From a virus (Duplodnaviria > Heunggongvirae > Uroviricota > Caudoviricetes): a DNA stretch of 64,000 nucleotides. The stretch spans positions 13,069-77,068 of the IMG/VR virus record IMGVR_UViG_3300033156_001279; one strand, 5' to 3'. A program made the translations under genes and the position numbers. Shown here one piece after another: positions 21,307-52,410 of the stretch (position 1 is its first letter; every line of letters starts with the position of its first letter). The notes below the pieces were generated by a model. That model saw only the letters and a list, made by a program, of their open reading frames with translations, made no database searches and was not told the origin of the DNA.

Positions 21307-22045
21307 ATCTAGAAATTACAATTCCTGCTGCCTTGTTAGCAAGCTCCATCATTTTTCTAGGATTCCTTATTCCATTTAAAAGACAAAAAATCAGAATCGA
21401 CATTACGGTATCACCTGCACCTGTAACATCAATGACTTCTTTGACATCTGCTGGAACATTTTCAACAAACTTTCCATTCTCATAATAATCAATTCCTTTC
21501 TCAGCCCGAGTAATAAATGCTTGAGGAAAATCAGGATTTTTAGCTTCAGCAAATTCAAACTGATTAATCTTAAGAATTTCAGTTCCCTTAAAAACAGAGA
21601 GGTCTTTCTTTTTGGAGTCAACTATAGTTGCCTTACCGCCTTTTATGAATCCTTTATCATAATCTACAAAAGCAATAACTTCGAAATCACAAGGATTGGG
21701 TAATAGGATTCCTTCTAAATCTTCTGGTCGATAAACCGAAGGCTCATCTATCCTCAGTAATTGTTGACGTTGAGCTACTATTCTTGTCTTTCTCAGAGAT
21801 TGACACCTTTTGGGACTAATGATTTCGAAATCAAAATCTCTTGCAAATTCATCATCAATGATAGTAAATACAACTGGAATTATTCCCAACCCCATCAGAT
21901 TAATTGCTACATTAAGAGCTCCACCAGCTCTAATCTCTGTCCGCTCAACATCTATAATTGGAACAGGAGCTTCAGGAGAAATTCTTTCAACTTTTCCAAA
22001 ACGATATTCATCAATGAAACTATCACCGACGATAGCAACCTTCAT
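21263..22045 (-). CDS. PfkB-family sugar kinase (HldE kinase-domain-like, heptose-7-phosphate kinase type)
   Basis: DVTGAGDTVMS (the PfkB DTxGAGD motif). N-terminal MKVAIVGDSFIDEY...GGALNVA. Confidence 0.6.
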   Translation of the reverse strand: MKVAIVGDSFIDEYRFGKVERISPEAPVPIIDVERTEIRAGGALNVAINLMGLGIIPVVFTIIDDEFARDFDFEIISPKRCQSLRKTRIVAQRQQLLRIDEPSVYRPEDLEGILLPNPCDFEVIAFVDYDKGFIKGGKATIVDSKKKDLSVFKGTEILKINQFEFAEAKNPDFPQAFITRAEKGIDYYENGKFVENVPADVKEVIDVTGAGDTVMSILIFCLLNGIRNPRKMMELANKAAGIVISRFGTSAISLDELFDN

Positions 22046-22046
22046 C

Positions 22047-23030
22047 TCAGCCTCCTTTCTGAAATTGGAAGCTTCTCCTTTTCAAAGAGCTATTCTTAAT
22101 TTGTCGGATTAAATTAGTTGTTGAAAAACCTTTCAAAAGAGGAATTATTACTACTTTACCCCCCGACTTTCTTACAAAATCAGCACCAACTACTGTTTTC
22201 AAAGTATAATCACCTCCCTTAACTAGTATATCAGGTTTGATATTCTCAATCAAATTCAAGGGACTATCTTCATCAAAAATCTCAACTCTATCTACAAAAC
22301 TAATCGCTTCTAAAAGTTCTTTCCGCAATTTTTCCCCAATGATTGGCTTTCTTTTCCACCTCTTTGCTGAATCATCAGAATTAATTCCGACAATTAATTT
22401 ATCTCCAAGTTTCCTAGCTTTTCTCAGGAGATGCAAATGACCCGAATGTAATAAATCAAATACTCCATTGGTAAATACAACACTCTTTTTTCTGAATAAT
22501 GCGCTATAAATATCTTCCCTGATTCCAGATTCTGTTTCAGGATAACCAGACTTAATAAGTTTGAAACCTCTAACTTGAAAGAATAAGTCTAAACTCCGCT
22601 CTGTAAAATAATGTAAATGCTCTCCAGTCTGATATTTGAGATGTTTCCAACCATCCAAATTCTTTCCGAATGGTAAAATGGGAACGGTAACAAAAACATA
22701 ATCAGTCATTTGGAATAAGCTATCAAGTACTAAAAAATCAGGAATATGCTCCAAGACATCACAAAGAAAAATCAGATCATAATGACTATGTCTGATTCCC
22801 GTATACTGAATTGGAAAATCTCCAATATCATAAGTATCAACCACTGTACCTTTAGGCTTAAAATCTTTTAGCAGATTCAAACCCGCTCCATAATCAAGAA
22901 CTGTTTTGGGTTTTATTTCTTCAACAAAATTCCAACGCAGTTCATTAATTACTTTTGCCGTTTCCATATTCAATTTTTTCATATATTCCCAATATTGTTT
23001 TCCATATGGGAAGGAATCTCTTTTAGACAT
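22047..23030 (-). CDS. bifunctional methyltransferase-like / cytidylyltransferase-like nucleotidyltransferase (HldE adenylyltransferase-domain-like)
   Basis: C-terminal VVFTNGVFDLLHSGHLHLLRKARKLGDKLIVGINSDDS carries the HxGH motif of the cytidylyltransferase family (RfaE domain II / TagD). N-terminal SAM-MTase-like VLDYGAGLNLL...LIFLCDVLEHI. The start is placed at the ATG at 23028-23030, which is preceded by an AAAGGAGG Shine-Dalgarno. The ORF track's TTG-extended ORF runs to 23081. Confidence 0.6.
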   Translation of the reverse strand: MSKRDSFPYGKQYWEYMKKLNMETAKVINELRWNFVEEIKPKTVLDYGAGLNLLKDFKPKGTVVDTYDIGDFPIQYTGIRHSHYDLIFLCDVLEHIPDFLVLDSLFQMTDYVFVTVPILPFGKNLDGWKHLKYQTGEHLHYFTERSLDLFFQVRGFKLIKSGYPETESGIREDIYSALFRKKSVVFTNGVFDLLHSGHLHLLRKARKLGDKLIVGINSDDSAKRWKRKPIIGEKLRKELLEAISFVDRVEIFDEDSPLNLIENIKPDILVKGGDYTLKTVVGADFVRKSGGKVVIIPLLKGFSTTNLIRQIKNSSLKRRSFQFQKGG

Positions 23031-23058
23031 GTTGACCTCCTTTCTTGTTAGGAAACTT

Positions 23059-23157
23059 GGAGAGACGTAATTTCCCAACAACCTTAAGGTCTCTCCAAAC
23101 CATTAGATATCATAAACTCCTTTTAGTGAAGTCTCCTTCTAATGGTTAACTTAAGGA
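23059..23157 (-). terminator. two adjacent hairpins downstream of the major capsid gene (candidate terminator/attenuator)
   Basis: Inverted repeats GGAGAGAC...GTCTCTCC (23059-23096) and AACCATTAGA...TCTAATGGTT (23098-23157), between the MCP stop and the glycan-island start. Confidence 0.3.
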
Positions 23158-23176: not shown

Positions 23177-24121
23177 TTAGAGCGACCAATCGGGATTACA
23201 ACCGTAAGCATACTGCCACATTCCAAAGCCAACATTTCCCCTGAAATCAACTCCGAAATAGAGTTTCTTTTTCAAGAAACTATCAGTATTATCCTTAGTC
23301 AGACTATCAAAGGTAATATCTCGTCTGATTTGAAGGATAATAGGTTTAACAATTCCAGTGGTATCTATAACAGCCCAGAAATTAGTATCTACATATGGAG
23401 TAACATAAAGATCCAGAGCTCCTTTCAGAACGTTCGTTGCAAGTTTGGTTCCTTCAACCTCTGTTGGGTAGTATTGGCTATTCAGAATTTCTCGAGCAGT
23501 AAATTGCTGACTTGGATTAACTATCAAGAGATTAGGTCTAACTTCAAGTGGATTTCCCTTATCATCCACCCATTGCATCATTTCTTCAATTACAGTTTGA
23601 AGATTATCAGCAGTCAATTCCAGGTTATCTCCATTTCGTTGAGTTCCAGATTCACCTTCTTCATGAGAATCTGAAAAGAAAGCCTGACCATCATAACAGG
23701 AAATATCTTTGCCTTCAAGAATTGTTCCATCTTCTCCTGTGGTGTTATCCCCTTGGTTTAATAAGGTATATACCATTTTGCCCCAGAACCTTCCAGCTTT
23801 ATTTGCCAAATCTCTTACTCTGATATTAATCTGGCCATACTGTTCATCTTCCAATGCATCTCTATCCACAGAAATAGAACTTTCCCAAGATCGATTCCTA
23901 ATGGAGAAATGATGTTCTAAAAGACCCTGTGGAACTCTTTCGTCTACCCATTCATGTAAGTCAGGTACCGCACCCAACCAAGGATAGGTTTCTTCACTCT
24001 TGGTTGAGTTTATTCTAGTAGCAATTCTTTCCCATTCAGCTTCATGCTTTCTAAACTCTTTCATGAATGTCTTTCTCATTCCAGCCTCTAATAGTTTTGG
24101 AATATCAGATTTTACTAACAT
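23177..24121 (-). CDS. major capsid protein
   Basis: 314 aa, immediately downstream of the protease/scaffold and a small head protein. Size and composition fit HK97-fold or Mu gpT-like capsid proteins. Confidence 0.5.
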   Translation of the reverse strand: MLVKSDIPKLLEAGMRKTFMKEFRKHEAEWERIATRINSTKSEETYPWLGAVPDLHEWVDERVPQGLLEHHFSIRNRSWESSISVDRDALEDEQYGQINIRVRDLANKAGRFWGKMVYTLLNQGDNTTGEDGTILEGKDISCYDGQAFFSDSHEEGESGTQRNGDNLELTADNLQTVIEEMMQWVDDKGNPLEVRPNLLIVNPSQQFTAREILNSQYYPTEVEGTKLATNVLKGALDLYVTPYVDTNFWAVIDTTGIVKPIILQIRRDITFDSLTKDNTDSFLKKKLYFGVDFRGNVGFGMWQYAYGCNPDWSL

Positions 24122-24664: not shown

Positions 24665-27109
24665 TTAGAAAGGAGTTGATTCACCTTCCTTTTTTTTCTC
24701 ATCTTGAACTTCTTTCCAAACTTCTTTTTGAATATCTTCATCCAATTCCATTGCTTCCATTACCTTCTTCCCATCCTCAGGAATTTCAGAAGTTTTTTCT
24801 CTCTCTTCTTTATCTTCATTAATTATACCTTCTTCTGATAAAGAAAAGATTGACTTTTTAGATTTCAGGAATTTTTCTAAAGCTTTACCAACCATTACTT
24901 TCTTTCCATCTTCCAATTCTATTTTGGAATCAGAACCAAGTAATGGAAGTAAAAGTTCTCTTTCTGTAGGAGTTACTTTTCCCATCCTGAGAAGAGCGTT
25001 ATATCTTTTCTCGGCTAAATCAACTTCTTTTTCTTCAGAATTCTCTTCAGTGGAAGTTTCTTCAGTTACAGATTCTTCAGATTCAGATTCCTCTTTTTCT
25101 TCTTCCTCGGTATCTTGACCAACTTTAGAAGACTCAGACTCTTCTTTCTCTGAAGTTTCTTCTGAAGTTTCCTCCGAAGTTTCCTCTGAAGTTTCATCTT
25201 CATTTAATTCCAATTTCTTCTCTATCCTTCTTATTTTCGAACTAATTTCCTCTTGGGTCAAGGGAGGTTCGGAATTCAGAATTGGAATAACCAATTTACC
25301 CTCAAAATTTTCTGAAAGCGGAACAAAGTTTTCCATTCCTTTGATATAAGGTTCGGTAACTAAGGCCGCATGAAATAAAGTCGGACCAATCCTTTCCCCT
25401 GTATCCTTTCTCATATAATCTTCAACAAAACTAGCTGAGATTCCATTAATCAAACCCTTTTTGATTCTTTCCGCAACTGCATCATCTTTCACTTCAATAA
25501 TTGCAGAAAGTTTGGTTCCATCTTTTGAAAGTTCCAAATCATTAACCTGACCTGCATTCTTCATTGGCTCGTCACCAACAGGATGTCCCAAAGGAACAGT
25601 AACATTATCAAGAACTCCTTTTTTAAAATTCTCATACAGCTTTCTTAGTGTCTCTTTTGAAACTTTCAAAATTCCATTTTTACTCGATTCATGAAACCAA
25701 GAACCAACTCTCAATATCTCCTTTTTAAATCTATTCCCTTCGCTAAGTTTGATTAATCCATTGTTATAAACTCGGTAAATCAAATCTTGATTTTCAGCCA
25801 ATTCTTTTTTAGGACTAGGATATGCTGAAGGATACTTTTCTTTTAGACTGATAATTTTCTCACGAATCTTTTTTAACTTGGTAGCAATCTTTTCATCGGC
25901 TTCTTTAATTATAGAATCAAGATCTCCTAAAATTGAATCAAGATTAGTCGTAGCCTTCCGAACTGGATAAGGATAACCATAAGGATAACGGTAAGGATAA
26001 CGGTAGGGATATTGATAAGGATATTGATAGGGATATTTAGAAGGATATTTTGGATATTTAACCGTTCTTTTGGCCTTCTCAGTTTTTCCGCTACAAATTT
26101 TGGCAGCTTCTTTCATTGATTTTCCAGCCTTCATCTCCTTTTTCATACAATCGGTATAAGCTGATTTTTCGAGTTTAGTTATTTTACCAGCTTTCTTAAC
26201 TTTCTTGCTACATATCTTTGCTGCTTCTTTAAATGGAGTTCCTTTCTTAAGCTCTTTTTTCATACAATCGGTGTAAGCGGATTTCTCTACATAAATTTTC
26301 TCAGTTAATTCAGTTTTTTCTTCTTCCTCATCGTCATCCTCTTCCTCATCTTCTTCATCTTCCTCATCCTTGTCTTCCTTATCATCCTCTTCCTTTTCAG
26401 TTTCTTCCTCTTTGTCCTCACCTTCTTCTTTATCCTCGACTTCTTCCGTATCCTCTTCAGACTCATCAGTTCCCTCTTCCTCAGTTTCCTCCTCTTCCTT
26501 AGTCCCTTCGGCCTCCGTTTCTTCAGTTTCTTCTTTATCATCTTCTAAACTTTCCTCTTCAGTTTCACTTAACTCTTCGAAATCTTCTTCTAAATTTTTG
26601 TTCATGGTTTTTTCAGCCATATCAATAGCTTTGGATACATACCATCGAATGGCTTTTGCTTCTGGATTTGCACCTTGCGGAACTAATGATACTTCCTCAA
26701 TATGCAAATCCTTAATTACTCTTAATTTCAAATCAGGAAATAACTCGACCTTTTCTCCATATTTTATCTCTCCTTTGACCGAGAGGCTATTTAGTTCTCC
26801 TGATTTGATTTTATCTATAATTTTTGGTTTATCTACTTCAGTCTTAATCCAAATTTTCCCTTTCCTGAAAACACAATCAAGAACTTTTCCTATTTCTTCT
26901 TTTGTATGGTTCAAACAGAATTTTCCATATTCTTTGAAATCCTTTATGCTTTTCCTTAAAGCTTTATCAGTAATAATATCATTCTGTAAATCAAAATCAT
27001 TCGCAACAGCAAATCCTTCAAGAATAAATCTTTCTTTTTTCTCTTTTTTCTCACTCAAAAAAAGTGGAAATTGAAATTCTATTTTTGGATAATATAATAA
27101 CTTGTTCAT
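24665..27109 (-). CDS. prohead protease (HK97 gp4/S78-like) fused to acidic repeat-rich scaffold region
   Basis: N-terminal FILEGFAVANDFDLQNDIITDKAL...LNHTKEEIGKV...LNSLSVKGEI and a second S78-like segment ...PLGHPVGDEP...GQVNDLELSKDGTKLSAIIEV...IKKGLINGISASF. Between them lie a poly-E/D tract, duplicated KSAYTDCMKKE.K.G..KEAAKICS modules, a YPYQYPYQYPYRYPYRYPYGYPYP repeat, and C-terminal ETSE x4. Confidence 0.5.
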   Translation of the reverse strand: MNKLLYYPKIEFQFPLFLSEKKEKKERFILEGFAVANDFDLQNDIITDKALRKSIKDFKEYGKFCLNHTKEEIGKVLDCVFRKGKIWIKTEVDKPKIIDKIKSGELNSLSVKGEIKYGEKVELFPDLKLRVIKDLHIEEVSLVPQGANPEAKAIRWYVSKAIDMAEKTMNKNLEEDFEELSETEEESLEDDKEETEETEAEGTKEEEETEEEGTDESEEDTEEVEDKEEGEDKEEETEKEEDDKEDKDEEDEEDEEEDDDEEEEKTELTEKIYVEKSAYTDCMKKELKKGTPFKEAAKICSKKVKKAGKITKLEKSAYTDCMKKEMKAGKSMKEAAKICSGKTEKAKRTVKYPKYPSKYPYQYPYQYPYRYPYRYPYGYPYPVRKATTNLDSILGDLDSIIKEADEKIATKLKKIREKIISLKEKYPSAYPSPKKELAENQDLIYRVYNNGLIKLSEGNRFKKEILRVGSWFHESSKNGILKVSKETLRKLYENFKKGVLDNVTVPLGHPVGDEPMKNAGQVNDLELSKDGTKLSAIIEVKDDAVAERIKKGLINGISASFVEDYMRKDTGERIGPTLFHAALVTEPYIKGMENFVPLSENFEGKLVIPILNSEPPLTQEEISSKIRRIEKKLELNEDETSEETSEETSEETSEKEESESSKVGQDTEEEEKEESESEESVTEETSTEENSEEKEVDLAEKRYNALLRMGKVTPTERELLLPLLGSDSKIELEDGKKVMVGKALEKFLKSKKSIFSLSEEGIINEDKEEREKTSEIPEDGKKVMEAMELDEDIQKEVWKEVQDEKKKEGESTPF

Positions 27110-31942: not shown

Positions 31943-33415
31943 TTAGTTCCGCATCTGGGACAAATTTTTTTTCTTTTGGCCATCAGCATATTTCTGACCC
32001 AACTTAAAACATTTAATTTCCAAGTCGGGACCAGGTTTTAAATTTAATATACTATCTTTCAAAGACTGAGGAGTCTTTGGAGCATTTATTTTAAGCTCAT
32101 CACTTCTTCTTCGCTTTCCTTCTTCAAAAGATTTTAACAAATTCTTATTCCTTTTCTCTGTCTCTTCCTCTTTCTTATGAATCCACTTGAGTTTTAAATT
32201 CCTTGCAGTCTCATCAATTACTTCGTCCACAAAACCATCAGGCAATCGTTTAGAGTCTGCTATCTTAGAAAAGACCGTTTCCAAGAATTGAGCAGTCTGT
32301 CCAGTTATCTTCTCAAATTCAATTCTTGGATATGCTTGACTGCCAAAGTTCCAATCTATAAGGGGAGCCACAGCATAAGTATTCAAGGTAGATTCCATCT
32401 GATTCATAATAGATTGAATAGACAAGGTGGCATATTGAGAGCTTTGGGTTCCTTTCCCATATGGATAAGCATATTTAATCTGATCTAAGACCTGCACCAA
32501 AGCTGACTTACTCATTTCACTATTATGATGTTCAATTAAAGGAAGAGGATCAAAACCTTTTTCACCACCTCTCTGAATTTCAAGTTCAATTCCTGGAGGC
32601 AAAGTCACTCTTGAATTAACTCCAAGAGTATCCACCACTTCTTCTGCTCTCTCTCTTTCTTGAGGAGTGGTAGTCTGTCCAATTTTTAATATTTTCAAAC
32701 CCAATGTGTCCAACTCGGCCTTTTTATGAGTTAAATAATATAACTTATGTTTTTTGTCATAATGATACCAGGCCGTCTTTAATATAGATTCGCCATAAAG
32801 CCAATGTTTTTCTTTTTGAAAGGTAAATAAAAGACACTTTTCAGGAGGAAAGTCTATAGAGACGGTTTCTCCCCCAAATGTTGCATCCTGATGTGCTCCA
32901 GCAAAACCGCCATGCTTATCAGGTTTTAAGGTAATAGTTTGAGCATCCCTCGGAGCTAATTTTTTCCAACCCACTTTACCTTTGTACTTACCATCGGGAA
33001 TTATTCTGGCTACTTTCTCATAAAGTCTAAATCCCTCAAAAATTGCTCTGGTCATATCAGCCACAATAAAAGGAAGTGGGGTAGTCATCCCACCTTGACC
33101 TGGAGGATTCATAAAAACCATTTCTATAAAGTCTCTTTCTCCCTTATCTCCTTCTGCTGGAAGAATATGAATAGGAGTTGAAATTATAGGTAAAGTCAGA
33201 AGTCTAACTATAGCCTGTATTTCACCATCATTGCTCTGCATCTGAATATAATCTTCGGGAGTCAATTCATCTGGATTTTCTTCTGTTTCATACGAGCTTA
33301 AGACTCCTTCACGAGCCAAACCGAACTCTTTCATAAACTCGCTGATAGTCAAAACCTTCCTTTCTTTCTTACTCCTTTTTTTTCTCTTAAAAAAATTAGG
33401 AATTTTTATATTCAC
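31943..33415 (-). CDS. portal protein (putative)
   Basis: 490 aa, upstream (in transcription order) of the protease/scaffold and MCP. Acidic, with size and position typical of portals. No diagnostic motif was verified. Confidence 0.4.
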   Translation of the reverse strand: MNIKIPNFFKRKKRSKKERKVLTISEFMKEFGLAREGVLSSYETEENPDELTPEDYIQMQSNDGEIQAIVRLLTLPIISTPIHILPAEGDKGERDFIEMVFMNPPGQGGMTTPLPFIVADMTRAIFEGFRLYEKVARIIPDGKYKGKVGWKKLAPRDAQTITLKPDKHGGFAGAHQDATFGGETVSIDFPPEKCLLFTFQKEKHWLYGESILKTAWYHYDKKHKLYYLTHKKAELDTLGLKILKIGQTTTPQERERAEEVVDTLGVNSRVTLPPGIELEIQRGGEKGFDPLPLIEHHNSEMSKSALVQVLDQIKYAYPYGKGTQSSQYATLSIQSIMNQMESTLNTYAVAPLIDWNFGSQAYPRIEFEKITGQTAQFLETVFSKIADSKRLPDGFVDEVIDETARNLKLKWIHKKEEETEKRNKNLLKSFEEGKRRRSDELKINAPKTPQSLKDSILNLKPGPDLEIKCFKLGQKYADGQKKKNLSQMRN

Positions 33416-34490: not shown

Positions 34491-34536
34491 ATGCTTAAAA
34501 AGAAGATGTTATCTTGCTTTAGTTATCTAGAACCGA

Positions 34537-35496
34537 TTATTTTCTAGTTAAAACTAAATGAATAACTCTATCGGAGAGTTCGACTCTCTCTCCAGTATAA
34601 TTCTCATTTTCAAGTGCTATCAGCCTCCAGTCTTTGCTTTTAGAAATAACTTTTTCCTGGAAATCAGACTGAAGAAGAATTTTGACGAATTCTTTGCCTC
34701 TCTCTTCTTTAAATTCAAATGGCAGATGTTCTTTCAATTTAGAAATTTTCTCTCCTTCCTTCTCTATCACTTTTTCTCTCATAATTTCCCAAGATTCAGG
34801 CAAATCAAAGACTTCTAAACCTGGTACCCCCTCTAAATCCAAAAGAGCCATGCCAACTTGATTCTCAAATCTGGGTATTTGGTTCAGAATAGATTTAATC
34901 TTTTCTGAGAAAGTCTTGAGATTCCCTTCTAAATCATCCGAACCAGCAAAATTAGTTTCCTCAATTATAGGAATCTCTCCTGCAGTTGTGGACAAGTCAT
35001 ATAACCTTCCCGTGAAATTTTGAGAAGTAGAACTAACCGCATTCCAAATTGTTCTTTGCTCCACATTCCTCATTTTAAAATTGGTATGAGACAAATAAGA
35101 ATCAAAATTGGAAGTAGCTATTCCCGAGGAAGTCATAGTAGATCCGGTATAAATTCCTTTAGAGGCATGAACGCAACGCACATCTATTCCAACTTTCTCT
35201 CCTGGCATAATCAAATAACTCCTAACAGCTATTCTCTCTTGAGTATCACCAGAAAAAATCTCACTCATTCTGATGTAAACTGGTTTTTTCTCGTTATTCT
35301 CCACTTCTACTTTGTTAATTTTGCCAGTATCCGTTATCTTAACATTTTTAGCCTCAGATAAAAGAAGATAATTCCTCCTTTTTCGAGTCTTTCTTAAAAT
35401 AGGAAGAATAGCCACTATCGAATCCTTGTTATATCTCCAACTTTTGCCGAAGGAGAATCCATCCTTCTCTTCGGCGATGCATTGACAAAAGTTCAT
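34537..35496 (-). CDS. hypothetical protein (319 aa), first gene of the leftward operon
   Basis: ORF downstream of the candidate late promoter at 35547-35576. Confidence 0.3.
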   Translation of the reverse strand: MNFCQCIAEEKDGFSFGKSWRYNKDSIVAILPILRKTRKRRNYLLLSEAKNVKITDTGKINKVEVENNEKKPVYIRMSEIFSGDTQERIAVRSYLIMPGEKVGIDVRCVHASKGIYTGSTMTSSGIATSNFDSYLSHTNFKMRNVEQRTIWNAVSSTSQNFTGRLYDLSTTAGEIPIIEETNFAGSDDLEGNLKTFSEKIKSILNQIPRFENQVGMALLDLEGVPGLEVFDLPESWEIMREKVIEKEGEKISKLKEHLPFEFKEERGKEFVKILLQSDFQEKVISKSKDWRLIALENENYTGERVELSDRVIHLVLTRK

Positions 35497-35546
35497 AATT
35501 TAAATTCTAGATTTTTAAAGAACAAGATAACATCTTCCTTAACTTA

Positions 35547-35576
35547 ATAATAAACACTGAATAATTAAAAGGTCAA
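35547..35576 (-). promoter_or_regulatory. candidate promoter for the leftward structural operon: -35 TTGACC, 18-nt spacer, -10 TATTAT
   Basis: Reverse complement of 35571-35576 is TTGACC. Reverse complement of 35547-35552 is TATTAT. Confidence 0.3.
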
Positions 35577-35704
35577 GTCTTTTATCATAAGAAATATAAA
35601 TAATGCGGTTAGCTGTTTGTTAAAGTAGCGAGTTTGGGATTTTTGTTGTGGGTGGGAGGGGGCTAGGAGGTTCCCCTTTTTCTTCTTTCTTTTTTTTTAT
35701 CCTT

Positions 35705-35850
35705 CTTTATCTGGTCCGGTTTTATTTGGTCCGGTTTTCTTTTTATTTCTTTTTAATCTCTGATCTCTGGTCCTGGTCCCGGTACTGGTCCTGATCTCTG
35801 GTCTCCAGTCTCCGGTCTCCGGTCTCCCTCTGGTCTCCGGTCTGGTTTTA
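35705..35850. repeat. GGTC-core short tandem repeat array in the divergent intergenic region
   Basis: ctGGTCCGGTTTTatt x2 (35711-35742), then GGTCCTGGTCCCGGTACTGGTCCTGATCTCTGGTCTCCAGTCTCCGGTCTCCGGTCTCCCTCTGGTCTCCGGTCTGG. About 14 GGTC units, including CGGTCTC x3 in tandem. Confidence 0.6.
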
Positions 35851-35871
35851 TACTCAAAAGAAGTTTTCCCC

Positions 35872-35900
35872 TTGACGGGGGGGCTTGATTTTGCTAAACT
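35872..35900 (+). promoter_or_regulatory. sigma70-type promoter P1: TTGACG-gggggg-N-TAAACT
   Basis: -35 TTGACG at 35872-35877, 17-nt spacer, -10 TAAACT at 35895-35900, followed by AAAGG. Shares the ggg-after-minus-35 architecture with the other promoters listed below. Confidence 0.4.
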
Positions 35901-35971
35901 AAAGGTAGGTGTGAATAACTCAAAAGGTCCATTAAAAATTAAATACTACTTGCCGGGGTAGTTAAAAAAAA

Positions 35972-36187
35972 ATGAGTAAAAAAGATTATATTAGGATCGC
36001 AGACGCAATCTCACATTTCCTCAATAGCACAGAGGAGAAAATTGACTTAGAGGGTCTAATTGCTTGTTTTTATGAAGAGCTAACAAGGGACAATTACCGT
36101 TTTGATATAGATAGATTTGTTATGTATCTTAGAAATAGAGTAAGACCGGATAAATTGAAAATGTATAAAAGCATCCTATCCAAATAG
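35972..36187 (+). CDS. hypothetical early protein (71 aa)
   Basis: First ORF of the rightward block. Confidence 0.4.
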   Translation: MSKKDYIRIADAISHFLNSTEEKIDLEGLIACFYEELTRDNYRFDIDRFVMYLRNRVRPDKLKMYKSILSK

Positions 36188-36341
36188 TATGAAGAAGCTT
36201 CAATTTGAAACTTTTGACGAATACCTGAAAAGAAGAAAAGAAGAAAAGAAAGAAAATAGAAATCTTATAAGGTTCTATTGTCTGTTGTTCTTAATGCTTG
36301 CCGTTGTTCTTCTTCTTCTTTACTTTTAAAGGGTTTTAGTT

Positions 36342-36376
36342 GGTAGCTTTAAAGTCCCCGGCGCTTTAAAGCTACC
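36342..36376 (+). promoter_or_regulatory. perfect 13-bp-stem hairpin GGTAGCTTTAAAG-tccccggcg-CTTTAAAGCTACC
   Basis: Seen directly in sequence. Lies downstream of ORF 35972-36187 and is followed by AAAGGTC. Confidence 0.5.
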
Positions 36377-36402
36377 CCTAAAGGTCTTTAAAAGATCTAA
36401 TG

Positions 36403-36422
36403 AAAGAGGTTGCCGGCTCTTT
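36403..36422 (+). promoter_or_regulatory. SD-containing hairpin AAAGAG-gttgccgg-CTCTTT, 12 nt upstream of the ATG
   Basis: Seen directly. A second copy sits at 36978-36998 (AAAGGAG-gttgccgg-CTCTTT) before ORF 37010. Confidence 0.45.
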
Positions 36423-36434
36423 TAAAAATGAAAA

Positions 36435-36767
36435 ATGAAAAAACAATATAATTTGAGGGGTTTTTATACCATTACATTCTGGGGTGGTGGAACTGGTTTT
36501 AAACATATCAATATAATTACAGATGAAGAGGGTTTGAAAAAGATAAGAAAAGAACCTTTACAGGATTACATATCTTTTGGGGTGGAGAGTGTGGATTATG
36601 TATCTTTTGAAGTGTATTTAACAGAGATTAAAGAAGAAGAAGACAAAACAATAAAAACAGAATATCTTGAACCTGTTGAAAGAATTGAGGCGGGTAAGTA
36701 TAAATTATCTTCAAAAGAAGAAGAAGCATTATTTGAAGATTTAGAAATAGCAAAGATTAACTATTAG
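36435..36767 (+). CDS. hypothetical protein (110 aa)
   Basis: ORF. The earlier ATG at 36428 is out of frame and hits a stop after 7 codons. Confidence 0.4.
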   Translation: MKKQYNLRGFYTITFWGGGTGFKHINIITDEEGLKKIRKEPLQDYISFGVESVDYVSFEVYLTEIKEEEDKTIKTEYLEPVERIEAGKYKLSSKEEEALFEDLEIAKINY

Positions 36768-36781
36768 TTTTTATTCTTTTA

Positions 36782-36815
36782 GTTAGCATCAAACATCCGG
36801 CGGTTTGGTGCTAAC
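36782..36815 (+). promoter_or_regulatory. conserved RNA hairpin element, copy 1 (loop ATCCGGCGG)
   Basis: GTTAGCATCAAAC-atccggcgg-TTTGGTGCTAAC. The flanking ..attcttttagt and acaataaagRat are also conserved with copy 2. Confidence 0.5.
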
Positions 36816-36934
36816 AATAAAGAATGAAAGCTCATCTTTAAAAAAATGAAGCCGTGAGAGGCGATTTAAGAGGTTTAAATGATAGGGTTAATGGTTTAGG
36901 TCATCTATTTTGGTCCAATTTGAAGTTTAGCTAT

Positions 36935-36962
36935 TGACAGGGGGTCTTGGTTTTGCTAAAAT
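36935..36962 (+). promoter_or_regulatory. sigma70-type promoter P2: TTGACA-ggggg-N-TAAAAT
   Basis: -35 at 36935-36940, 16-nt spacer, -10 TAAAAT at 36957-36962. Confidence 0.4.
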
Positions 36963-37009
36963 TAAGAATAGATAACTAAAGGAGGTTGCCGGCTCTTTCA
37001 CAATAAAAA

Positions 37010-37261
37010 ATGAATAAAAAACAAATAAAAGCAATCTTAGAGGAAGTTAGGAATGAATTAAAAGAAGATAAGAAATGGGAGCATCAAGTTAAGAAATGGA
37101 AGAAAAACAAAGTAAAAACCACCTCCGAAGATTTTGTGAATTGGTTAAAGAAAAACAGACAGGATTTAGTTCAAAAGATCTCCCAGTTAAGTTGTAAGGA
37201 AGTATGGGATGAAGGGTTTTTAGTTGCTGGAATTGTATGGAGTAGCTTAATGAAAAAATAA
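37010..37261 (+). CDS. hypothetical protein (83 aa)
   Basis: ORF preceded by an SD hairpin. Confidence 0.4.
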   Translation: MNKKQIKAILEEVRNELKEDKKWEHQVKKWKKNKVKTTSEDFVNWLKKNRQDLVQKISQLSCKEVWDEGFLVAGIVWSSLMKK

Positions 37262-37287
37262 ACAAAACATTTAATTGTATTCTTTTA

Positions 37288-37321
37288 GTCAGCATCAGTC
37301 ATCCGGCGGGCTGGTGTTGAC
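37288..37321 (+). promoter_or_regulatory. conserved RNA hairpin element, copy 2 (loop ATCCGGCGG; stem holds with G-U wobbles)
   Basis: GTCAGCATCAG(tc)-atccggcgg-GCTGGTGTTGAC. The primary sequence differs from copy 1 in the stem, but pairing is kept through G-U wobble. That is compensatory-type conservation. Confidence 0.5.
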
Positions 37322-37380
37322 AATAAAGGATATAAACTAAAGGTCGTTTATTAAAAATTAAATAAAATAAAATATAAAAT

Positions 37381-37581
37381 ATGAGTAGAAAATATATTAT
37401 TAAGGATTTAGGCGATGGCTGGTATGATTTTAGTAAAATACCCCAGAATAAAAGCTACATAAAGATTGGTGCGGTGATGTGTAAAAGTCCAGAAAAAGCA
37501 CAAAAACAAGCCCTTCATATTTTAGAGGTCAATGGTTTGATTCCTACCAGTCCTGATGGTGCTGAAGTAATAATAAAATAA
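37381..37581 (+). CDS. hypothetical protein (66 aa)
   Basis: ORF. Confidence 0.35.
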   Translation: MSRKYIIKDLGDGWYDFSKIPQNKSYIKIGAVMCKSPEKAQKQALHILEVNGLIPTSPDGAEVIIK

Positions 37582-38301: not shown

Positions 38302-38700
38302 TTAAAGAGAACTAATTTGACCTACAGCATCAATAACATATCTTGTTCCGTTCTTTCTTTTATAAATACTTCTATTATCTTTATCAGGTATATCCTCAGG
38401 ATTTTCTGGTTCTGGTCTCGTCTTCCAAGTAGCACCTAAAGAATTGGTTATACCTTCTTTTTCGTGTTCGTATATCACAGCTCTTCTTCCATAAACTTCT
38501 TCACCCTTTACTACTGTATAAGATAATTTGTCCGAGTTATTATTGTCCGCTTTTATCCCGGACACTTGAACTTTATTGTCCGCTTTATTGTCCGCTTTAT
38601 TGTCCGCTTTACGAGAATATGCTTTTCTACACCTATCCGAACAAAACTTAGCATCTTTTCTTTTAGATATAAACTCTTTATTACAATTTAAACATCTCAT
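38302..38700 (-). CDS. zinc-ribbon protein with ADNK tandem repeat
   Basis: MRCLNCNKEF...CSDRC, then ADNKADNKADNK. This is encoded by a 12-bp x3 tandem DNA repeat at ~38565-38610. Lone leftward gene inside the rightward block. Confidence 0.45.
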   Translation of the reverse strand: MRCLNCNKEFISKRKDAKFCSDRCRKAYSRKADNKADNKADNKVQVSGIKADNNNSDKLSYTVVKGEEVYGRRAVIYEHEKEGITNSLGATWKTRPEPENPEDIPDKDNRSIYKRKNGTRYVIDAVGQISSL

Positions 38701-40649: not shown

Positions 40650-41306
40650 TTGACTATGGAAAATAAAAAGAAAAAACAAGGAGTATTTTTTAACAAGTTT
40701 AACTTCTTAATACATAATTTTTGCGGTAAGTCCTCCGGAAGACCCGAACTGGGAGGAGTGTTTGTTTCACCTGCTCACACCGTAAGCACAGACAGTTTTA
40801 AGATAATCAAGGTAGACACCCCAAAGGGTTTAGATCCTGATGATTATCCAATTATACCTAATAAACCAAAACCTTTGAATAATTTTAAGAGTTTTATTCT
40901 GCCGAAAGATGAAGCAAAAGAGGTATTAGAAATGTTTAGAAGTCAAAAGAGTTCAAAATCTCTACCTATTTTAGATTATGCCGTGCTTCTAAAAAATGAT
41001 AAGGAAAATGTAGAGATAGGAAAAACCAATTTAGAAAGTTTTAGGAGTGTAAGCAGTAGAAAAATCGTAGGTGAATATCCCAGATACCAAGATTTATTTG
41101 TTGAGAGAGGCAAATATATTGAGATTTCAGTCAATCCCTCGTTTTTAAAAGAGATAGTGAACTTTTATGTCAGTTTTATAGATAAACCCTTAAAAGAATT
41201 AAAGATTAAAGTTCCAATAGAAAAAACTAACCCCATAAGGTTTTATGCTGAACGGCAAGAAGGGCAAAAAGCTGTCGCTTTATTGATGGCTATTGAGGAT
41301 AAATAA
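40650..41306 (+). CDS. hypothetical protein (218 aa)
   Basis: Largest ORF in this part of the early block. No motif recognised. Confidence 0.4.
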   Translation: MTMENKKKKQGVFFNKFNFLIHNFCGKSSGRPELGGVFVSPAHTVSTDSFKIIKVDTPKGLDPDDYPIIPNKPKPLNNFKSFILPKDEAKEVLEMFRSQKSSKSLPILDYAVLLKNDKENVEIGKTNLESFRSVSSRKIVGEYPRYQDLFVERGKYIEISVNPSFLKEIVNFYVSFIDKPLKELKIKVPIEKTNPIRFYAERQEGQKAVALLMAIEDK

Positions 41307-41952: not shown

Positions 41953-42168
41953 ATGACTATGTTTAAAAAAATCTATGTGGTCTATCCCAGAAAATTCAAT
42001 AGCGATAAAGAGATAATGGATTATCTTGAAAAAGACGGAGATGTTGAGAGTTTTTCAAGTTTAAAAAAGGCAAGAGAGTTCAAAAAAGAATATGGCGGTT
42101 GGATAAACCAAGAAGTAGCCGATGAAGAAGTGTTTAAAGAAATTGATAAATATACCAAAAGAATATGA
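41953..42168 (+). CDS. hypothetical protein (71 aa)
   Basis: ORF. Overlaps the next gene by 4 nt. Confidence 0.35.
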   Translation: MTMFKKIYVVYPRKFNSDKEIMDYLEKDGDVESFSSLKKAREFKKEYGGWINQEVADEEVFKEIDKYTKRI

Positions 42169-42872
42169 CAAAGAATACTTTAAAAGTTCACCAGATTTTG
42201 GATAAGTTTGTTCAGGGCGTTGTCAAAGATTTAAGTAATTCTTTATTAGTAGTAGGATCAGCTGGAACTGGAAAAACCGAAGGAATACTCTCAAGTTTAA
42301 AGAAACTAAAACTTCAAGAAAACAGACATTTTAAATACCTAAATAGCTATTCCAGTCCTCTTGAATTCTATCATTTGTTGGAAGATGTAAATGAACTGGA
42401 AAAACCAAGATTGCTGGTGCTTGATGATGCCGAAGAGTTTATTCACAACAAAAGAATTTTATCGTTGTTAAGAAGTAGTTTATGGGGAAATTTAGAAGGA
42501 AAAAGAATAGTCCATTGGATTTCGCCAAGAACAGAAAATCATAGTTTTGAGTTTAATGGCAAAATTATAATTCTACTAAATGAATTAAACCTAAATAATA
42601 GTTTAATCCGGGCTTTGATTTCAAGAGGATTTTTCTATAATTTAAAACTGACAAGGCAAGAAATATCAGATCTTATTCAAGAAAGAGCAAAAGTTCCGTA
42701 TAAAAATCTTTCATTTAAACAAAGAAAGAAAATAGCTAATTTTTTAATAGAGGAAGGAAATAAGGGTAAAAAACTCAATTTGCGAACTTTTCCTTTAGCA
42801 ATGAACTTATTTCTTCTTTCTCCTAATCATTATCAAAGGTTGATTTCAGAACTTTTATCAAAAAATTATTAA
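42165..42872 (+). CDS. AAA+ ATPase (helicase-loader / replication-initiator-like)
   Basis: Walker A VVGSAGTGKTEG, Walker B LLVLDDAEEF. 235 aa, the size of DnaC/IstB-type loaders. Lies downstream of a 370-bp structured non-coding region. Confidence 0.5.
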   Translation: MTKNTLKVHQILDKFVQGVVKDLSNSLLVVGSAGTGKTEGILSSLKKLKLQENRHFKYLNSYSSPLEFYHLLEDVNELEKPRLLVLDDAEEFIHNKRILSLLRSSLWGNLEGKRIVHWISPRTENHSFEFNGKIIILLNELNLNNSLIRALISRGFFYNLKLTRQEISDLIQERAKVPYKNLSFKQRKKIANFLIEEGNKGKKLNLRTFPLAMNLFLLSPNHYQRLISELLSKNY

Positions 42873-43936: not shown

Positions 43937-44110
43937 ATGAGAAGTCGTCAAAATGGCAATCACAAAATTTTAGAAATCTATCTTAGTGATTTAAAAAAGG
44001 AAGCACAGAAAGAAGTATTAGATTTATATCAATTGAAAGAAGACAACTACGATATAGCTCCGTTGTTTGTATTAGAAAATGAAACAAAAAAACAAAGAAT
44101 ATCCAAATAA
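43937..44110 (+). CDS. hypothetical small protein (57 aa; not in ORF track)
   Basis: ATG 24 nt after AAAGGTCA. Confidence 0.3.
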   Translation: MRSRQNGNHKILEIYLSDLKKEAQKEVLDLYQLKEDNYDIAPLFVLENETKKQRISK

Positions 44111-44525
44111 ACTGAGATGTAAAATCTGTGGCAAAGAGTTTGAGCATTTGGGTTCTCATATTTGGCACAAACACAAAATACCTGTTCGTGAATATAAGGA
44201 GAGATTTGAATTACCGTATAATGAAGCCCTGATTTCAGAAGAAATTTATTATAAGAAAAAGAAGCATTGGGAAAGCAGGAGAGATTATTATCTTAAAAAT
44301 TTAAGGAGAGGAAAAAAATATCAGTTTAAGAAAGGGCATAGAGGTCAGAGAAGAATATCAGCAAGCGAAAGAAAACGACTTATTAAGAGAATACTTGAAG
44401 TTAACAAAAAAAGAAAGTTGGAAAAATGCCCTATTTGTAATCTAAAATTTTATTGTTTGGATGCTCATCTTTTTAAAAAACATCAATTCTTGAGAGTTCC
44501 TAAAATCAAAAAGGTCGCAAAATAA
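44079..44525 (+). CDS. C2H2-like zinc-finger protein (two CxxC...HxxxH units), basic
   Basis: CKICGKEFEHLGSHIWHKH and CPICNLKFYCLDAHLFKKH. Confidence 0.35.
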   Translation: MKQKNKEYPNKLRCKICGKEFEHLGSHIWHKHKIPVREYKERFELPYNEALISEEIYYKKKKHWESRRDYYLKNLRRGKKYQFKKGHRGQRRISASERKRLIKRILEVNKKRKLEKCPICNLKFYCLDAHLFKKHQFLRVPKIKKVAK

Positions 44526-47119: not shown

Positions 47120-47974
47120 TTAATAATTATTTCGACCTTTATTATTAAATGGCTCTAATTCATCAAGATTCTCATCAATAAATTTATGAATTGTTTCTAA
47201 TTTCCACGGAAAGTTTACATTGTCGCACAACCAATCCATCACAGCTACTATTTCCTCATCTGGATAACCAATAAGAGCTTTTGCTGGTCTTAACTCTCTT
47301 TTAAGAGCGGCTTGATATTGTTGCTGATTAGCAAACTGAAAATTTTTATATTCCCAATAAAGAGCAATAATTTGGATATGTCTCTTTTTATCTTTTTTCA
47401 TTTCTTCTAATTTAGATTTAAAAGAAAATTCTTTGAGTTGTGACTTAGTCGCAACATTCCTTTCTTTTGTGTTTCCTTTCTTTTGTGTTTCCTTACTATT
47501 AGAAGTAAAACTGTTTAACCCGTGATGTAAAACTCTTATACTCGTGAGTTTTAACTCTTTTACATCACCTTTGTAAGTGTTGTAAAACTCTTTTACTTCA
47601 CTTTCGCTCATATTTTTGAATTTCTTTTTAAGTTCTTTCAGTTCGCTAAAATCAGTTCTCCAATGTTTTTTACCCAAAAGCCAATATCTATTCGTGCATT
47701 GTTTTCCTATTCTCTTTTGTTTTATGAGTCCGAAATATCTTAAAACTTTAATCCCTTCATTGACTGTTGCTCTACTTAATGCTAATTCTTCAGCAATCTT
47801 TTTTTGAGCAGGAAATGCCTTTTGATTTTTATCAGCATATCTACATAAACTAATATAAATCATTGAGAAAGTAGTTCCCAAAATTCGAGCGTACCCATTA
47901 AGAAACTTATCATCAGTCCAATACCAACCCTTAGGTCTCATATCTCTCACTTCAAATTGTTCTTTTTCCTCCAT
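47120..47974 (-). CDS. HTH replication-initiator / replisome-organizer-like protein
   Basis: The N-terminal ...ISLCRYADKNQKAFPAQKKIAEELALSRATVNEGIKVLRYFGLI resembles the winged-HTH of plasmid/phage Rep (DnaD/RepA_N-like) proteins. Adjacent to inverted repeats at 48041-48115. Confidence 0.45.
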   Translation of the reverse strand: MEEKEQFEVRDMRPKGWYWTDDKFLNGYARILGTTFSMIYISLCRYADKNQKAFPAQKKIAEELALSRATVNEGIKVLRYFGLIKQKRIGKQCTNRYWLLGKKHWRTDFSELKELKKKFKNMSESEVKEFYNTYKGDVKELKLTSIRVLHHGLNSFTSNSKETQKKGNTKERNVATKSQLKEFSFKSKLEEMKKDKKRHIQIIALYWEYKNFQFANQQQYQAALKRELRPAKALIGYPDEEIVAVMDWLCDNVNFPWKLETIHKFIDENLDELEPFNNKGRNNY

Positions 47975-48353: not shown

Positions 48354-49175
48354 ATGGGCAGGAGGCAAAAATTATTTAAACCAATTACAGATGAAAGTTC
48401 TGCCTCTCAATATATGGGTATTAAAGAATTTAAAAATAAAATAATATGTGGAGATTGCTTAAAGATTTTACCAAAGATTCCTGATAATTCTGTTGATTTG
48501 ATAATAACTGATCCGCCTTATAATATAAGCCAAAAAGGTAAAAGTATATCAAGAAAATCAATGAGAGCAACTTCAATGAAGAGAAATATGGATATCAAAT
48601 TGGATTTTGGAGATTGGGATCATATGTCAGAAAAAAATTTTAAGAAATTTACAGAAGAATGGTTTAAAGAGTGTGCAAGAATTCTAAAACCGAAGAGTTG
48701 GATCTATGTATTTTTTAGTAAGGAGAGAATTGGATATTTAGCGATGAATTTAGATTTGAAATATGGTTTGAAGACAAGAACTATATTTACTTGGGTAAAG
48801 AAAAACCCAGCACCTCAATTTAAAAAAGTCAATTGGATTTCCGCAACAGAATTTATTTGGGTAGGAAGTAAAGGAGCAAGTAAATTGAAAAACTATGGTT
48901 ATGTTAAAGATATGTATAATTGGTATATGACTTGTAATAAATCCATTTATGGTAAAACAGAGCATCCAACAGAAAAACCAGTTGAATTGGTAGAACATTT
49001 CATAAGATATAACTCCAATGAAAATGATATAGTTCTTGATCCTTTTCTTGGTTCGGGCACTACAGCAGTTGCATGCAAAAGATTAAGAAGAAATTATTTA
49101 GGAATCGAAAAAAATAAGAAGTATTGTAGAATAGCGAAACAAAGAATTGATGCTCAAACTCTGCCTCTCTTTTAA
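48354..49175 (+). CDS. beta-class DNA methyltransferase (DPPY; N6-adenine or N4-cytosine)
   Basis: Motif IV LIITDPPYN precedes motif I FLGSGTTAVAC, which is the beta-class order. Confidence 0.7.
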   Translation: MGRRQKLFKPITDESSASQYMGIKEFKNKIICGDCLKILPKIPDNSVDLIITDPPYNISQKGKSISRKSMRATSMKRNMDIKLDFGDWDHMSEKNFKKFTEEWFKECARILKPKSWIYVFFSKERIGYLAMNLDLKYGLKTRTIFTWVKKNPAPQFKKVNWISATEFIWVGSKGASKLKNYGYVKDMYNWYMTCNKSIYGKTEHPTEKPVELVEHFIRYNSNENDIVLDPFLGSGTTAVACKRLRRNYLGIEKNKKYCRIAKQRIDAQTLPLF

Positions 49176-49179
49176 AAGA

Positions 49180-50250
49180 ATGGAATTTGTAAAAAAAATA
49201 CCACAAAATAATACAGAAAAAAATATAAGGCGGTTTATAAACTCCAATATTCAAGGAGATACACTGGAAGTATTAAAAACATTTCCAGAAGAATGCATTG
49301 ATTCAATTATTACATCACCACCATATTATTTACTAAGAGACTACCAAATTGAAAAACAAATTGGGTTGGAGAGAACTTATCAAGAATATCTTGCTAAACT
49401 TTGGGTAATTTTTGATGAAATAAAAAGAGTATTGAAGAAAGATGGAACCTGTTTTGTAAATTTGGGTGATACTTTTTCTGGCGGTGGATTTGGATATGGA
49501 AATATTACAGATGAAGAATTCAAAAAAAAATCCCCAAAACAAGGAAGCAATGTTGGGACTTTGTCGGGTAAAAGCAGATTAAAGATAAATAAATTAAGAA
49601 AATTGAAACAATGTCCAGCTAAATCTTTAATGCTCATTCCTCACAGATTCGCAATAGGAATGCTAGATAGAAATTGGCATTTAAGGAATACTTTGATCTG
49701 GATAAAGAAAAATGCAATGCCTGAAAGCGTGCGAGACAGATGGAAAAAAGCTCATGAGTATATTTTTTTCTTTACTAAATCGCCTAAATATCATTTTGAT
49801 TTAGATGCTATAAGAAGACCACACAAAGAAGTTTCAATCAAGCGAGCTAAATATGAGCAAGGTAGAAACGCATTAGGATTAAATCCGAGTAGCATGGGAA
49901 AAAAATATAAAGGCAATAAAAGATATTTTGGAATGCCTGCCAGAATGGTTAAATTAAATCCCAAAGGGGCAGTTCCGCCAGATTATCTCTTGGTTAATAC
50001 CAACTGTTCAGAAAAAGATACTTCGGAACACTATGCCAGCTTTCCACAGGATTTAATTATTCCCTTAATCCAAGCTGGCTGTCCTAAAAGAGGAATCATA
50101 TTAGATCCATTTATAGGAAGTGGAACAACAGGAATAGTCGCTCTCAAATTAGATAGAAATTTTATAGGGATTGATATAAAAGAAGAATATGTAAAAATGG
50201 CTAATAAAAGAATTGAACCATATCTAAGACAAACAAAATTATTTAAGTAA
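49180..50250 (+). CDS. beta-class DNA methyltransferase (SPPY; probably N4-cytosine)
   Basis: IITSPPYY, then C-terminal FIGSGTTGIVAL. The start is placed at the ATG at 49180 (MEFVKK); the ORF track shows a longer overlapping extension. Confidence 0.7.
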   Translation: MEFVKKIPQNNTEKNIRRFINSNIQGDTLEVLKTFPEECIDSIITSPPYYLLRDYQIEKQIGLERTYQEYLAKLWVIFDEIKRVLKKDGTCFVNLGDTFSGGGFGYGNITDEEFKKKSPKQGSNVGTLSGKSRLKINKLRKLKQCPAKSLMLIPHRFAIGMLDRNWHLRNTLIWIKKNAMPESVRDRWKKAHEYIFFFTKSPKYHFDLDAIRRPHKEVSIKRAKYEQGRNALGLNPSSMGKKYKGNKRYFGMPARMVKLNPKGAVPPDYLLVNTNCSEKDTSEHYASFPQDLIIPLIQAGCPKRGIILDPFIGSGTTGIVALKLDRNFIGIDIKEEYVKMANKRIEPYLRQTKLFK

Positions 50251-52395: not shown

Positions 52396-52410
52396 TGAAC
52401 CTGGGTTCAA

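Follow-up and report, generated by a model that had tools for sequence, protein, structure and literature searches.

Repeat arrays in phage control regions are usually called 'iterons' or 'operators' on sight. In an iteron-type origin, direct repeats of approximately 17-22 bp bind the initiator, are regular and helically phased, and lie in or next to the initiator gene, as in the lambda-type origin, in which the iterons are located in the O gene beside an AT-rich region. Heptad operator arrays are bound by omega, the ribbon-helix-helix repressor of plasmid pSM19035. Here, we analysed an array of short GGTC-containing direct repeats at positions 35700..35850 (+ strand) of a 64,000-nucleotide (nt) stretch of DNA, hereafter called the window, which corresponds to positions 13,069 to 77,068 of IMG/VR record IMGVR_UViG_3300033156_001279 and derives from a large tailed phage. 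The array lies in the non-coding gap between the leftward structural arm and the rightward early genes. In its relatives, the features that are conserved are other than these labels suggest, namely the position, the strand asymmetry, TGGTCT on one strand, and the linkage to DnaA boxes and an extended -10 early promoter. We tentatively favour the reading that this tract is a cis-acting, factor-binding DNA module upstream of the DnaA-box-flanked early promoter.

The array contains 10 A in 150 nt and has a G+C content of 49%, compared with 25% in the left flank (35497-35640) and approximately 33% in the genome. A tandem-repeat check, which had been proposed along with the original prediction of an iteron-like array, defined its units, and the repeats are far beyond chance. 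Tandem Repeats Finder reported a 15-nt unit present 2.5 times (35706-35742), CTGGTC present six times (35767-35803) and a 7-nt unit present 7.4 times (35795-35843). The two predicted 16-bp units were recovered by repeat search as TCTGGTCCGGTTTTAT at 35710 and TTTGGTCCGGTTTTCT at 35725, with a third, degenerate copy at 35836. Read along the + strand, the two 15/16-bp units (TCTGGTCCGGTTTTAT; 35710-35740) are followed by two copies of TTTCTTTTTA (35736-35755), by a hexamer run of GATCTCT, GGTCCT, GGTCCC, GGTACT, GGTCCT and GATCTCT (35756-35799), and by a heptad run of GGTCTCC, AGTCTCC, GGTCTCC, GGTCTCC, CTCT, GGTCTCC and GGTCTGG (35800-35845). Three perfect tandem copies of CGGTCTC had been described; two are perfect (35813-35826), and the third is the preceding variant AGTCTCC.

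In total, we counted 10 exact GGTC in 35700-35850, all of them on the + strand and none on the - strand, where 0.25 were expected. Together with the degenerate units GGTAC, GATCTCT (twice) and AGTCTCC, this makes the earlier count of about a dozen GGTCC/GGTCTCC units a fair one. The next densest 151-nt window of the 64 kb has 3 GGTC (Poisson P = 2e-13), and the 13-mer GGTCTCCGGTCTC has five matches at no more than two mismatches, all within the array, compared with an expected 0.28. Successive GGTC are spaced 15, 41, 6, 12, 13, 14, 7, 11 and 7 nt apart. A window scan showed that the motif cluster occurs once, TGGTC[TC] forming no cluster elsewhere in the 64 kb. The depletion of A extends to the left of the array, with 14 A in the 210 nt of the + strand from 35641 to 35850 (P = 1e-20).

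We found no close relatives of the two flanking proteins in IMG/VR, and 50,697 phage records contained no nucleotide match to 34500-37500. Related lineages, designated by L numbers, were obtained by exact look-up of homologues of the ARPP-1 domain protein that heads the leftward arm (L012-L014), by a metagenome scan (L015-L040), by a scan with a conserved block of the gap (L045/L048), by a portal-profile scan (L049-L065) and from a genome collection (L069). The portal proteins of the lineages used for comparing architecture are 62-72%, or approximately 67%, identical to that of the window. A scan of IMG/VR with the array pattern GGTCTCCGGTCTCCGGTCTCC matched L001-L003 only.

At least nine lineages share one architecture. 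In early-sense orientation, it consists of one or more leftward sigma70-type promoters, a conserved block (T)AGCGAGTTTGGGATTTT, a purine-rich stem that forms a hairpin ending at a T8-9 run, a variable tandem-repeat tract, a AAGTTTTCCACA or TTATCCACA element, the early promoter TTGAC-N17-TGnTAnnnT, in several lineages TGTGGATAA in the leader, and finally a conserved A-rich leader and the first early open reading frame (ORF).

The tract itself takes several forms. It consists of GGTCC and GGTCTCC units in the window and, with position and orientation unchanged, of GGTCTGG(G) units in L013 and L015/L026. Several GGTC cores align among the window, L013 and L015 although their ARPP-1 proteins are just 52-54% identical. 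GCTCTT and GGCTC units form the tract of L045/L048/L057 (2 A in 229 nt) and TTTCTTG-type units that of L058 (2 A in 329 nt), L054, L055 and L069 have T-rich, A-poor tracts with a few TGGTCT, and L049 has a short pyrimidine tract. The tract is missing from L017, which carries a G-free array with a period of approximately 11 nt. In L012, two extra tandem sigma70 early promoters and 11-bp TTTTAAGTATA repeats stand in place of the tract, and L014 has no array and two perfect DnaA boxes around its promoter. Absence of the repeats from every related phage had been named among the grounds for abandoning the original prediction. This does not apply because L013 and L015/L026 and, in sparse form, L054 and L055 carry GGTC(T) arrays at the matching position with unchanged orientation.

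Across the relatives, the tract is approximately 100-330 nt long and nearly A-free on the early-sense strand. Its G+C content of 33-49% is not below the genome average, and the strand is T-rich and A-poor. G+T amounts to 79-84% in L013 and L015 and to 71% in the window, but the units of the window are C-rich. In k-mer counts over eight tracts, TGGTCT was present at least twice in five lineages, and CTTGTT was likewise found in five. All GGTC sites of the L015 array are TGGTC or GGGTC, and 7 of the 10 in the window fit (G/T)GGTC, the other three being CGGTC. Neither unit length nor phase is conserved, with periods of 5, 6, 7, 11 and 15 nt among lineages. Because the arrays are identical between samples (L015 = L026; L045 = L048 = L057), they are stable and are not contingency loci. 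Judged from these sequences, what is conserved is the position, the orientation and the A-depletion of the early-sense strand, with TGGTC(T) conserved in a subset of lineages only.

The gap spans 475 bp (35497-35971), as had been claimed. Both promoters of the original prediction were recovered at their coordinates by a promoter scan, and both are conserved in relatives, which supports the gap as a divergent control region flanked by host-type promoters. The leftward sigma70-type promoter (35547..35576, - strand; TTGACC, 18-nt spacer, TATTAT; 10/12 matches) precedes the ARPP-1 gene, and its -35 context CTTGACCTTTT is found again in L012, L013, L015, L017, L049 and L069. The designation of the leftward side as 'late' is unproven, since relatives have consensus sigma70 promoters there.

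Between this promoter and the array lies the conserved block AGCGAGTTTGGGATTTTT (landmark AGCGAGTTTGGGA; 35627..35644), which is near-identical in L012, L013, L015, L045, L051 and L055 and present in similar versions in L049, L054, L058 and L069. In relatives, it is located immediately upstream of the -35 element of a leftward promoter. It is followed by a terminator-like hairpin on the + strand (35650-35684, facing rightward; predicted fold -13.4 kcal/mol), a T-rich spacer (35685-35689) and a T9 run (35690-35698). A G-rich tract previously assigned to 35705-35850 does lie in the gap; it is located at 35650-35670, outside that interval, and is the 5' arm of the hairpin. A stem ending at a T8-9 run recurs, with differing stem sequences, in L045, L049, L051, L054, L055, L058 and L069. 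With a stem-loop directly before a T run whose position is held in eight lineages, 35650-35698 looks like a rightward Rho-independent terminator. No conserved RNA fold of the block was predicted across relatives, the terminal hairpin being the one element that recurs. Ahead of the block, a TAnnnT hexamer is found in the window (TGTTAAAGT), L045, L017, L049 and L051 but not in every lineage. The block could be a protein site or the 5' part of a short rightward RNA. The interval 35627-35698 and the homologous sites in L012-L069 could represent a small RNA of approximately 70 nt or a protein-binding site plus terminator, the promoter evidence being inconsistent.

The array ends at 35845, 27 bp upstream of the early promoter (35872..35900, + strand; TTGACG, 17-nt spacer, TAAACT), in which TGC forms an extended -10 element. 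This TTGAC-N17-TGnTAnnnT arrangement is kept in L012, L013, L014, L015, L045 and L051. Adjoining the -35 element, TTTTCCCCT (35864..35872, + strand) is a degenerate version of AAGTTTTCCACA, an element that matches the DnaA-box consensus and abuts the early promoter -35 in relatives. TTTTCCACA is located upstream of the -35 twice in L054 and once each in L051 and L069, and the same place is taken by TTATCCACT in L049 and by TTATCCACA in L014. A DnaA-box-like site in the leader of the early transcript (35910..35918, - strand) has the sequence TGTGAATAA on the + strand, corresponding to TTATTCACA on the - strand, a match to TTWTNCACA. No other relaxed DnaA box occurs in 35400-36100, and the 64 kb has nine in all. 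A perfect TGTGGATAA occurs at the homologous position in L012 and L015, and a perfect box lies just upstream of the promoter in L055 and L058. Box orientation is not uniform across lineages, being opposite in L051, L054, L069 and L014. Because DnaA-box-like sites are present in the window and in relatives, the involvement of DnaA in this control region is well supported; its role may be in regulation or in initiation.

In the reading that we tentatively favour, the array would be this phage's version of a clade-conserved module, a non-coding, strand-asymmetric, A-poor simple-repeat tract that is apparently untranscribed and sits between the rightward terminator-like hairpin with its T9 run and the DnaA-box-flanked early promoter. 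It would work in cis, at the DNA level, to control the divergent promoter region from upstream, offering approximately ten same-orientation TGGTC(T/C) sites to one factor. We infer that this factor, which may be of phage or host origin, is a protein whose binding affects transcription: once bound, it would set the activity of the early promoter, and possibly the balance with the leftward promoters, jointly with promoter-adjacent DnaA. If this is true, the tract defines the early switch of a clade of uncultured groundwater and sediment phages with genomes of apparently approximately 77 kb.

This reading is supported by an array that is far from chance, confined to one strand and the single motif cluster in 64 kb, and that sits a short distance ahead of a conserved early promoter with an extended -10, in a module whose order is kept in at least nine lineages. 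TGGTCT is shared by five of the eight tracts, GGTC cores are aligned, and the arrays are stable between samples. In addition, the promoter scan found no promoter-like site within the tract on either strand, single-strand folding of the tract is weak with no stable fold predicted, and there is no Rfam match. The extra tandem early promoters that L012 has in place of the tract fit a transcription-related role. Several results weigh against this reading, however. The search for a binding protein yielded none, with no Pfam/PHROG match to a DNA-binding family among the small early ORFs examined, and no early gene was found to track the presence or absence of the tract. Irregular spacing and a period that varies among lineages (5, 6, 7, 11 or 15 nt) are unusual for cooperative double-strand binders, the extreme A-depletion of one strand is unexplained by double-strand binding and hints at a single-strand function, and the TGGTC motif is missing from the L045 and L058 tracts.

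Compared with the heptad operators of omega, the array is similar in having contiguous 7-bp units of the same orientation in a promoter region. At least two such units in a row characterize these operators, and six heptads with one 4-nt interruption are present at 35800-35845. Operators of this type overlap the core promoter that they repress and have the gene of a small cognate regulator nearby. The array, by contrast, ends at 35845, short of the core promoter, whose -35 starts at 35872, and its period varies both internally and between relatives. Among the ORFs scanned, none matched a ribbon-helix-helix gene.

A candidate iteron origin lies elsewhere in the window. The gene of an O/DnaD-like initiator (47120-47974, - strand), which has an N-terminal helix-turn-helix domain, carries its own repeats at 47457-47604, consisting of 2.4 perfect copies of TTCCTTTCTTTTGTGT and three direct TGTAAAACTCTT-type units with a period of approximately 22 bp, together with an inverted copy. 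They are located in the linker that follows the helix-turn-helix, and L007 and L010 have perfect repeats beside their O-like homologues. The window has a direct-repeat array and an encoded O/DnaD-like initiator in common with the lambda-type origin; the lambda-like arrangement, however, is that at 47457-47604 within the initiator gene, whereas the GGTC array is 11.4 kb away and has irregular, GC-rich units of 5-7 bp. On sequence grounds, 47457-47604 appears to be the better, lambda-like candidate, and the most credible iteron origin moves to 47.45-47.60 kb. The GC-skew check suggested earlier gave a cumulative minimum at approximately 35 kb. Because the skew changes sign within the islands of minus-strand genes at 46-48 and 51-53 kb, it tracks gene orientation and provides no independent origin signal. 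Instead of the cluster of DnaA boxes of an oriC-like origin, the window has one relaxed and one degenerate box at the gap, and relatives have one or two.

The original prediction saw in this gap the anatomy of a phage switch region or of an iteron-bearing origin, of which the divergent control region with a conserved repeat module is supported and the classical iterons are not. That the array represents iterons of a phage replication origin bound by the phage initiator is highly improbable. The direct repeats do lie in a divergent control region, adjoined by an AT-rich flank (35497-35640) and the relaxed DnaA-box-like site at 35910, and the array is conserved in some relatives. However, apart from just two 15/16-bp units, the units are 5-7 bp long, and those of 6-7 bp are irregularly spaced, leaving GGTC without helical phasing. 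Among relatives, the period changes and the unit sequence is altered (GGTCTGG, GCTCTT/GGCTC, TTTCTTG) or lost, and the initiator gene lies 11.4 kb off with its own repeats of approximately 22-bp period. A different replicative role, the main rival of the favoured reading and one that we regard as possible if doubtful, is that of a single-strand initiation or origin zone. Negative supercoiling generated by the divergent promoters would open the region, with DnaA at one or more neighbouring boxes assisting, and the unstructured T-rich, A-free strand would become a loading and priming platform. That one strand is devoid of A and its complement of T suggests a single-strand function, and the TGGTC/GGGTC sites resemble recognition sites of T7-type zinc-finger primases. 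T7 primase primes at 5'-(G/T)2GTC-3' (PMC12839067); all GGTC of the array are on one strand, and 7 of 10 in the window and all in the L015 array fit the template-strand site in the form given there. Binding of T7 primase increases up to 10-fold when the flanks are G/T-rich (PMC6136900), and a G/T-rich, A-poor context surrounds the TGGTC/GGGTC cores in L013 and L015. In contrast, the flanks of the window sites are C/T-rich, 3 of 10 sites are CGGTC, and the sites are clustered upstream of a promoter where those of T7 are dispersed. A scan of the window ORFs revealed no gene for a primase, helicase or polymerase, approximately 13 kb of the contig lying outside the window. DnaA boxes are conserved beside the tract, and DnaA oligomers bind specifically to the T-rich strand of an unwound origin (PMC5716108). 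In Escherichia coli oriC, whose unwinding element lies beside DnaA box R1, we verified the same order of a T-rich strand followed by TGTGGATAA; a T-rich, A-poor strand followed by TGTGGATAA or TGTGAATAA, here between divergent promoters, is seen in the window, L012, L015, L055 and L058. CTTGTT/TTGTT is enriched in the tracts, and the tract lies at the switch point of the divergent arms and at the cumulative GC-skew minimum, but the skew follows gene orientation. Unlike oriC, the control region has one or two boxes, whose orientation differs between lineages (opposite in L051, L054, L069 and L014), and no oligomerisation region, and its tract of 150-330 nt is not AT-rich. At 49% G+C in a genome of 33%, the array is not an easily melted region. 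The tract is also missing from L012, L014 and L017, and a canonical iteron cluster lies within the O-like initiator gene. A single-strand zone would be an unusual origin architecture; that it is a dedicated priming or helicase-loading zone, constituting a transcription-activated origin distinct from the lambda-like iteron origin in the initiator gene, seems unlikely.

Two further explanations dispense with a replicative role. It is rather doubtful that the tract is a sequence-nonspecific spacer or insulator, generated by replication slippage, that separates strong divergent promoters and perhaps absorbs supercoiling. Near-absence of A on one strand, and hence of T on the other, leaves room on either strand for hardly any TAnnnT -10 hexamers, ATG starts or stop codons, and the promoter scan found no promoter-like site in the tract on either strand. 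Unit sequence and period are not conserved, whereas A-depletion and position are (2 A/329 nt in L058; 2 A/229 nt in L045), and the tract varies in length from approximately 100 to 330 nt and is replaced in L012. An inert spacer is difficult to reconcile with a TGGTCT common to five lineages and with GGTC cores that align across distant relatives, and copies that are identical between samples argue against free slippage. Moreover, compact phage genomes seldom retain 150-330 nt of inert DNA, and a long insulator is not evidently required between back-to-back promoters. Finally, the tract could act as RNA (a leader or decoy), which would be U-rich if transcribed rightward and A/G-rich without U if transcribed leftward, or as a DNA-entry or packaging signal, for example a T5-like injection-stop region; we consider this very unlikely. 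The T5 injection-stop region is non-coding and repeat-rich and combines its repeats with DnaA boxes (bioRxiv 10.1101/866236), which resembles the long non-coding, repeat-rich region with DnaA boxes beside the earliest genes described here, and several of the metagenomic contigs terminate no more than a few hundred nt from the tract. Contig breaks, however, are expected at low-complexity repeats. In T5, the region is in the terminal repeat and has eight ordered DnaA boxes and many palindromes, whereas here it lies mid-contig, both in the window and in the 76.8-kb contig of L049, with one or two boxes and direct repeats only. Against an RNA, the tract has no promoter directed into it and lies behind a terminator-like hairpin, and neither an Rfam match nor a stable fold was found.

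Other candidates were tried and rejected. A 48-amino-acid (aa) ORF at 35648-35794 owes its open frame solely to the lack of A on the strand, and the 5-7-nt periods shift the frame; coding was therefore rejected. A partition centromere was dismissed, the nearby ATPase (42165-42872) being an AAA+ protein with a Walker A motif and no ParA-family match, as was a regulon, TGGTC[TC] having no second cluster in the 64 kb. A restriction-site decoy was considered for CCGG, GGWCC and GGTCTC, which are concentrated in the array but missing from relatives.

The leftward (minus-strand) structural arm encodes a tape-measure protein (2779-5157), a major head protein (23177-24121), a protease/scaffold (24665-27109) and a Mu-type portal (31943-33415), and it is headed by the ARPP-1 domain protein (PF20208; 34537-35496). 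Wherever both genes are seen in L012-L040, the ARPP-1 homologue is conserved as the first or second gene of this arm and lies immediately upstream of the portal gene. Small plus-strand ORFs begin at 35972. The first early ORF (35972..36187, + strand; 71 aa) has no known domain, and no word-sharing homologues of it were found. Because its weak homologues occur both in relatives with the tract and in relatives without it, this ORF does not track the array. To the right of the gap are a clamp-like protein (40650-41306) and the AAA+ ATPase, whose Walker A motif is GSAGTGKT. A Ros/MucR-type zinc-finger protein (44079-44525, + strand; PF05443, 29.6 bits compared with a cut-off of 25.4) is a candidate DNA-binding protein of the early arm, and no link between it and the array was made. 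Three DNA methyltransferases (48354-49175, 49147-50250 and 50257-50916) precede the large terminase (50917-52410, - strand). No transfer RNA was found in the window, and no Rfam family was found at gathering scores or at E up to 1.

More distant relatives, with portals approximately 50% identical, have tandem arrays upstream of the portal as well (L004, 3242-3475; L006, 730-1225; L010, 7464-7718; L005, 1-119). Those of L004, L006 and L010 are in the divergent gap, and that of L005 is at the contig start. These arrays are AT-rich and unrelated in sequence, and several contigs end within them. Clade contigs L066-L069 are binned in metagenome-assembled genomes labelled Nanoarchaeia, Woesearchaeota, Saccharibacteria and Bacteroidetes. 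Given that the sigma70-type promoters and DnaA boxes indicate a bacterial host, contamination of these bins is probable, and their labels probably reflect mis-binning and do not identify the host.

With a further methyltransferase gene at 61711-62028, the window has at least four genes for DNA methyltransferases. Short palindromes are strongly depleted, GATC occurring 58 times where 198 are expected from base composition; GCGC was seen just 6 times and CGCG 2 times, no expectation having been computed for either. Sugar-nucleotide genes lie among the head and tail genes (approximately 18479-23081), including a nucleotide-sugar epimerase (18479-19531) and a heptose-phosphate adenylyltransferase/methyltransferase fusion (22047-23081) within the structural arm, and may have a role in virion or DNA glycosylation. 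A second Mu gpT-like major head protein is encoded in the rightward arm (55326-56258, + strand), far from the main head gene (23177-24121). Repeats are also found inside genes: a perfect 12-nt repeat CTTTATTGTCCG is present in 3.4 copies at 38571-38611, inside an HNH-like ORF (38302-38700), and an 18/36/54-nt array at 60945-61172 begins in a beta-solenoid/pentapeptide-repeat ORF (60795-61121) and extends approximately 50 nt beyond its end.

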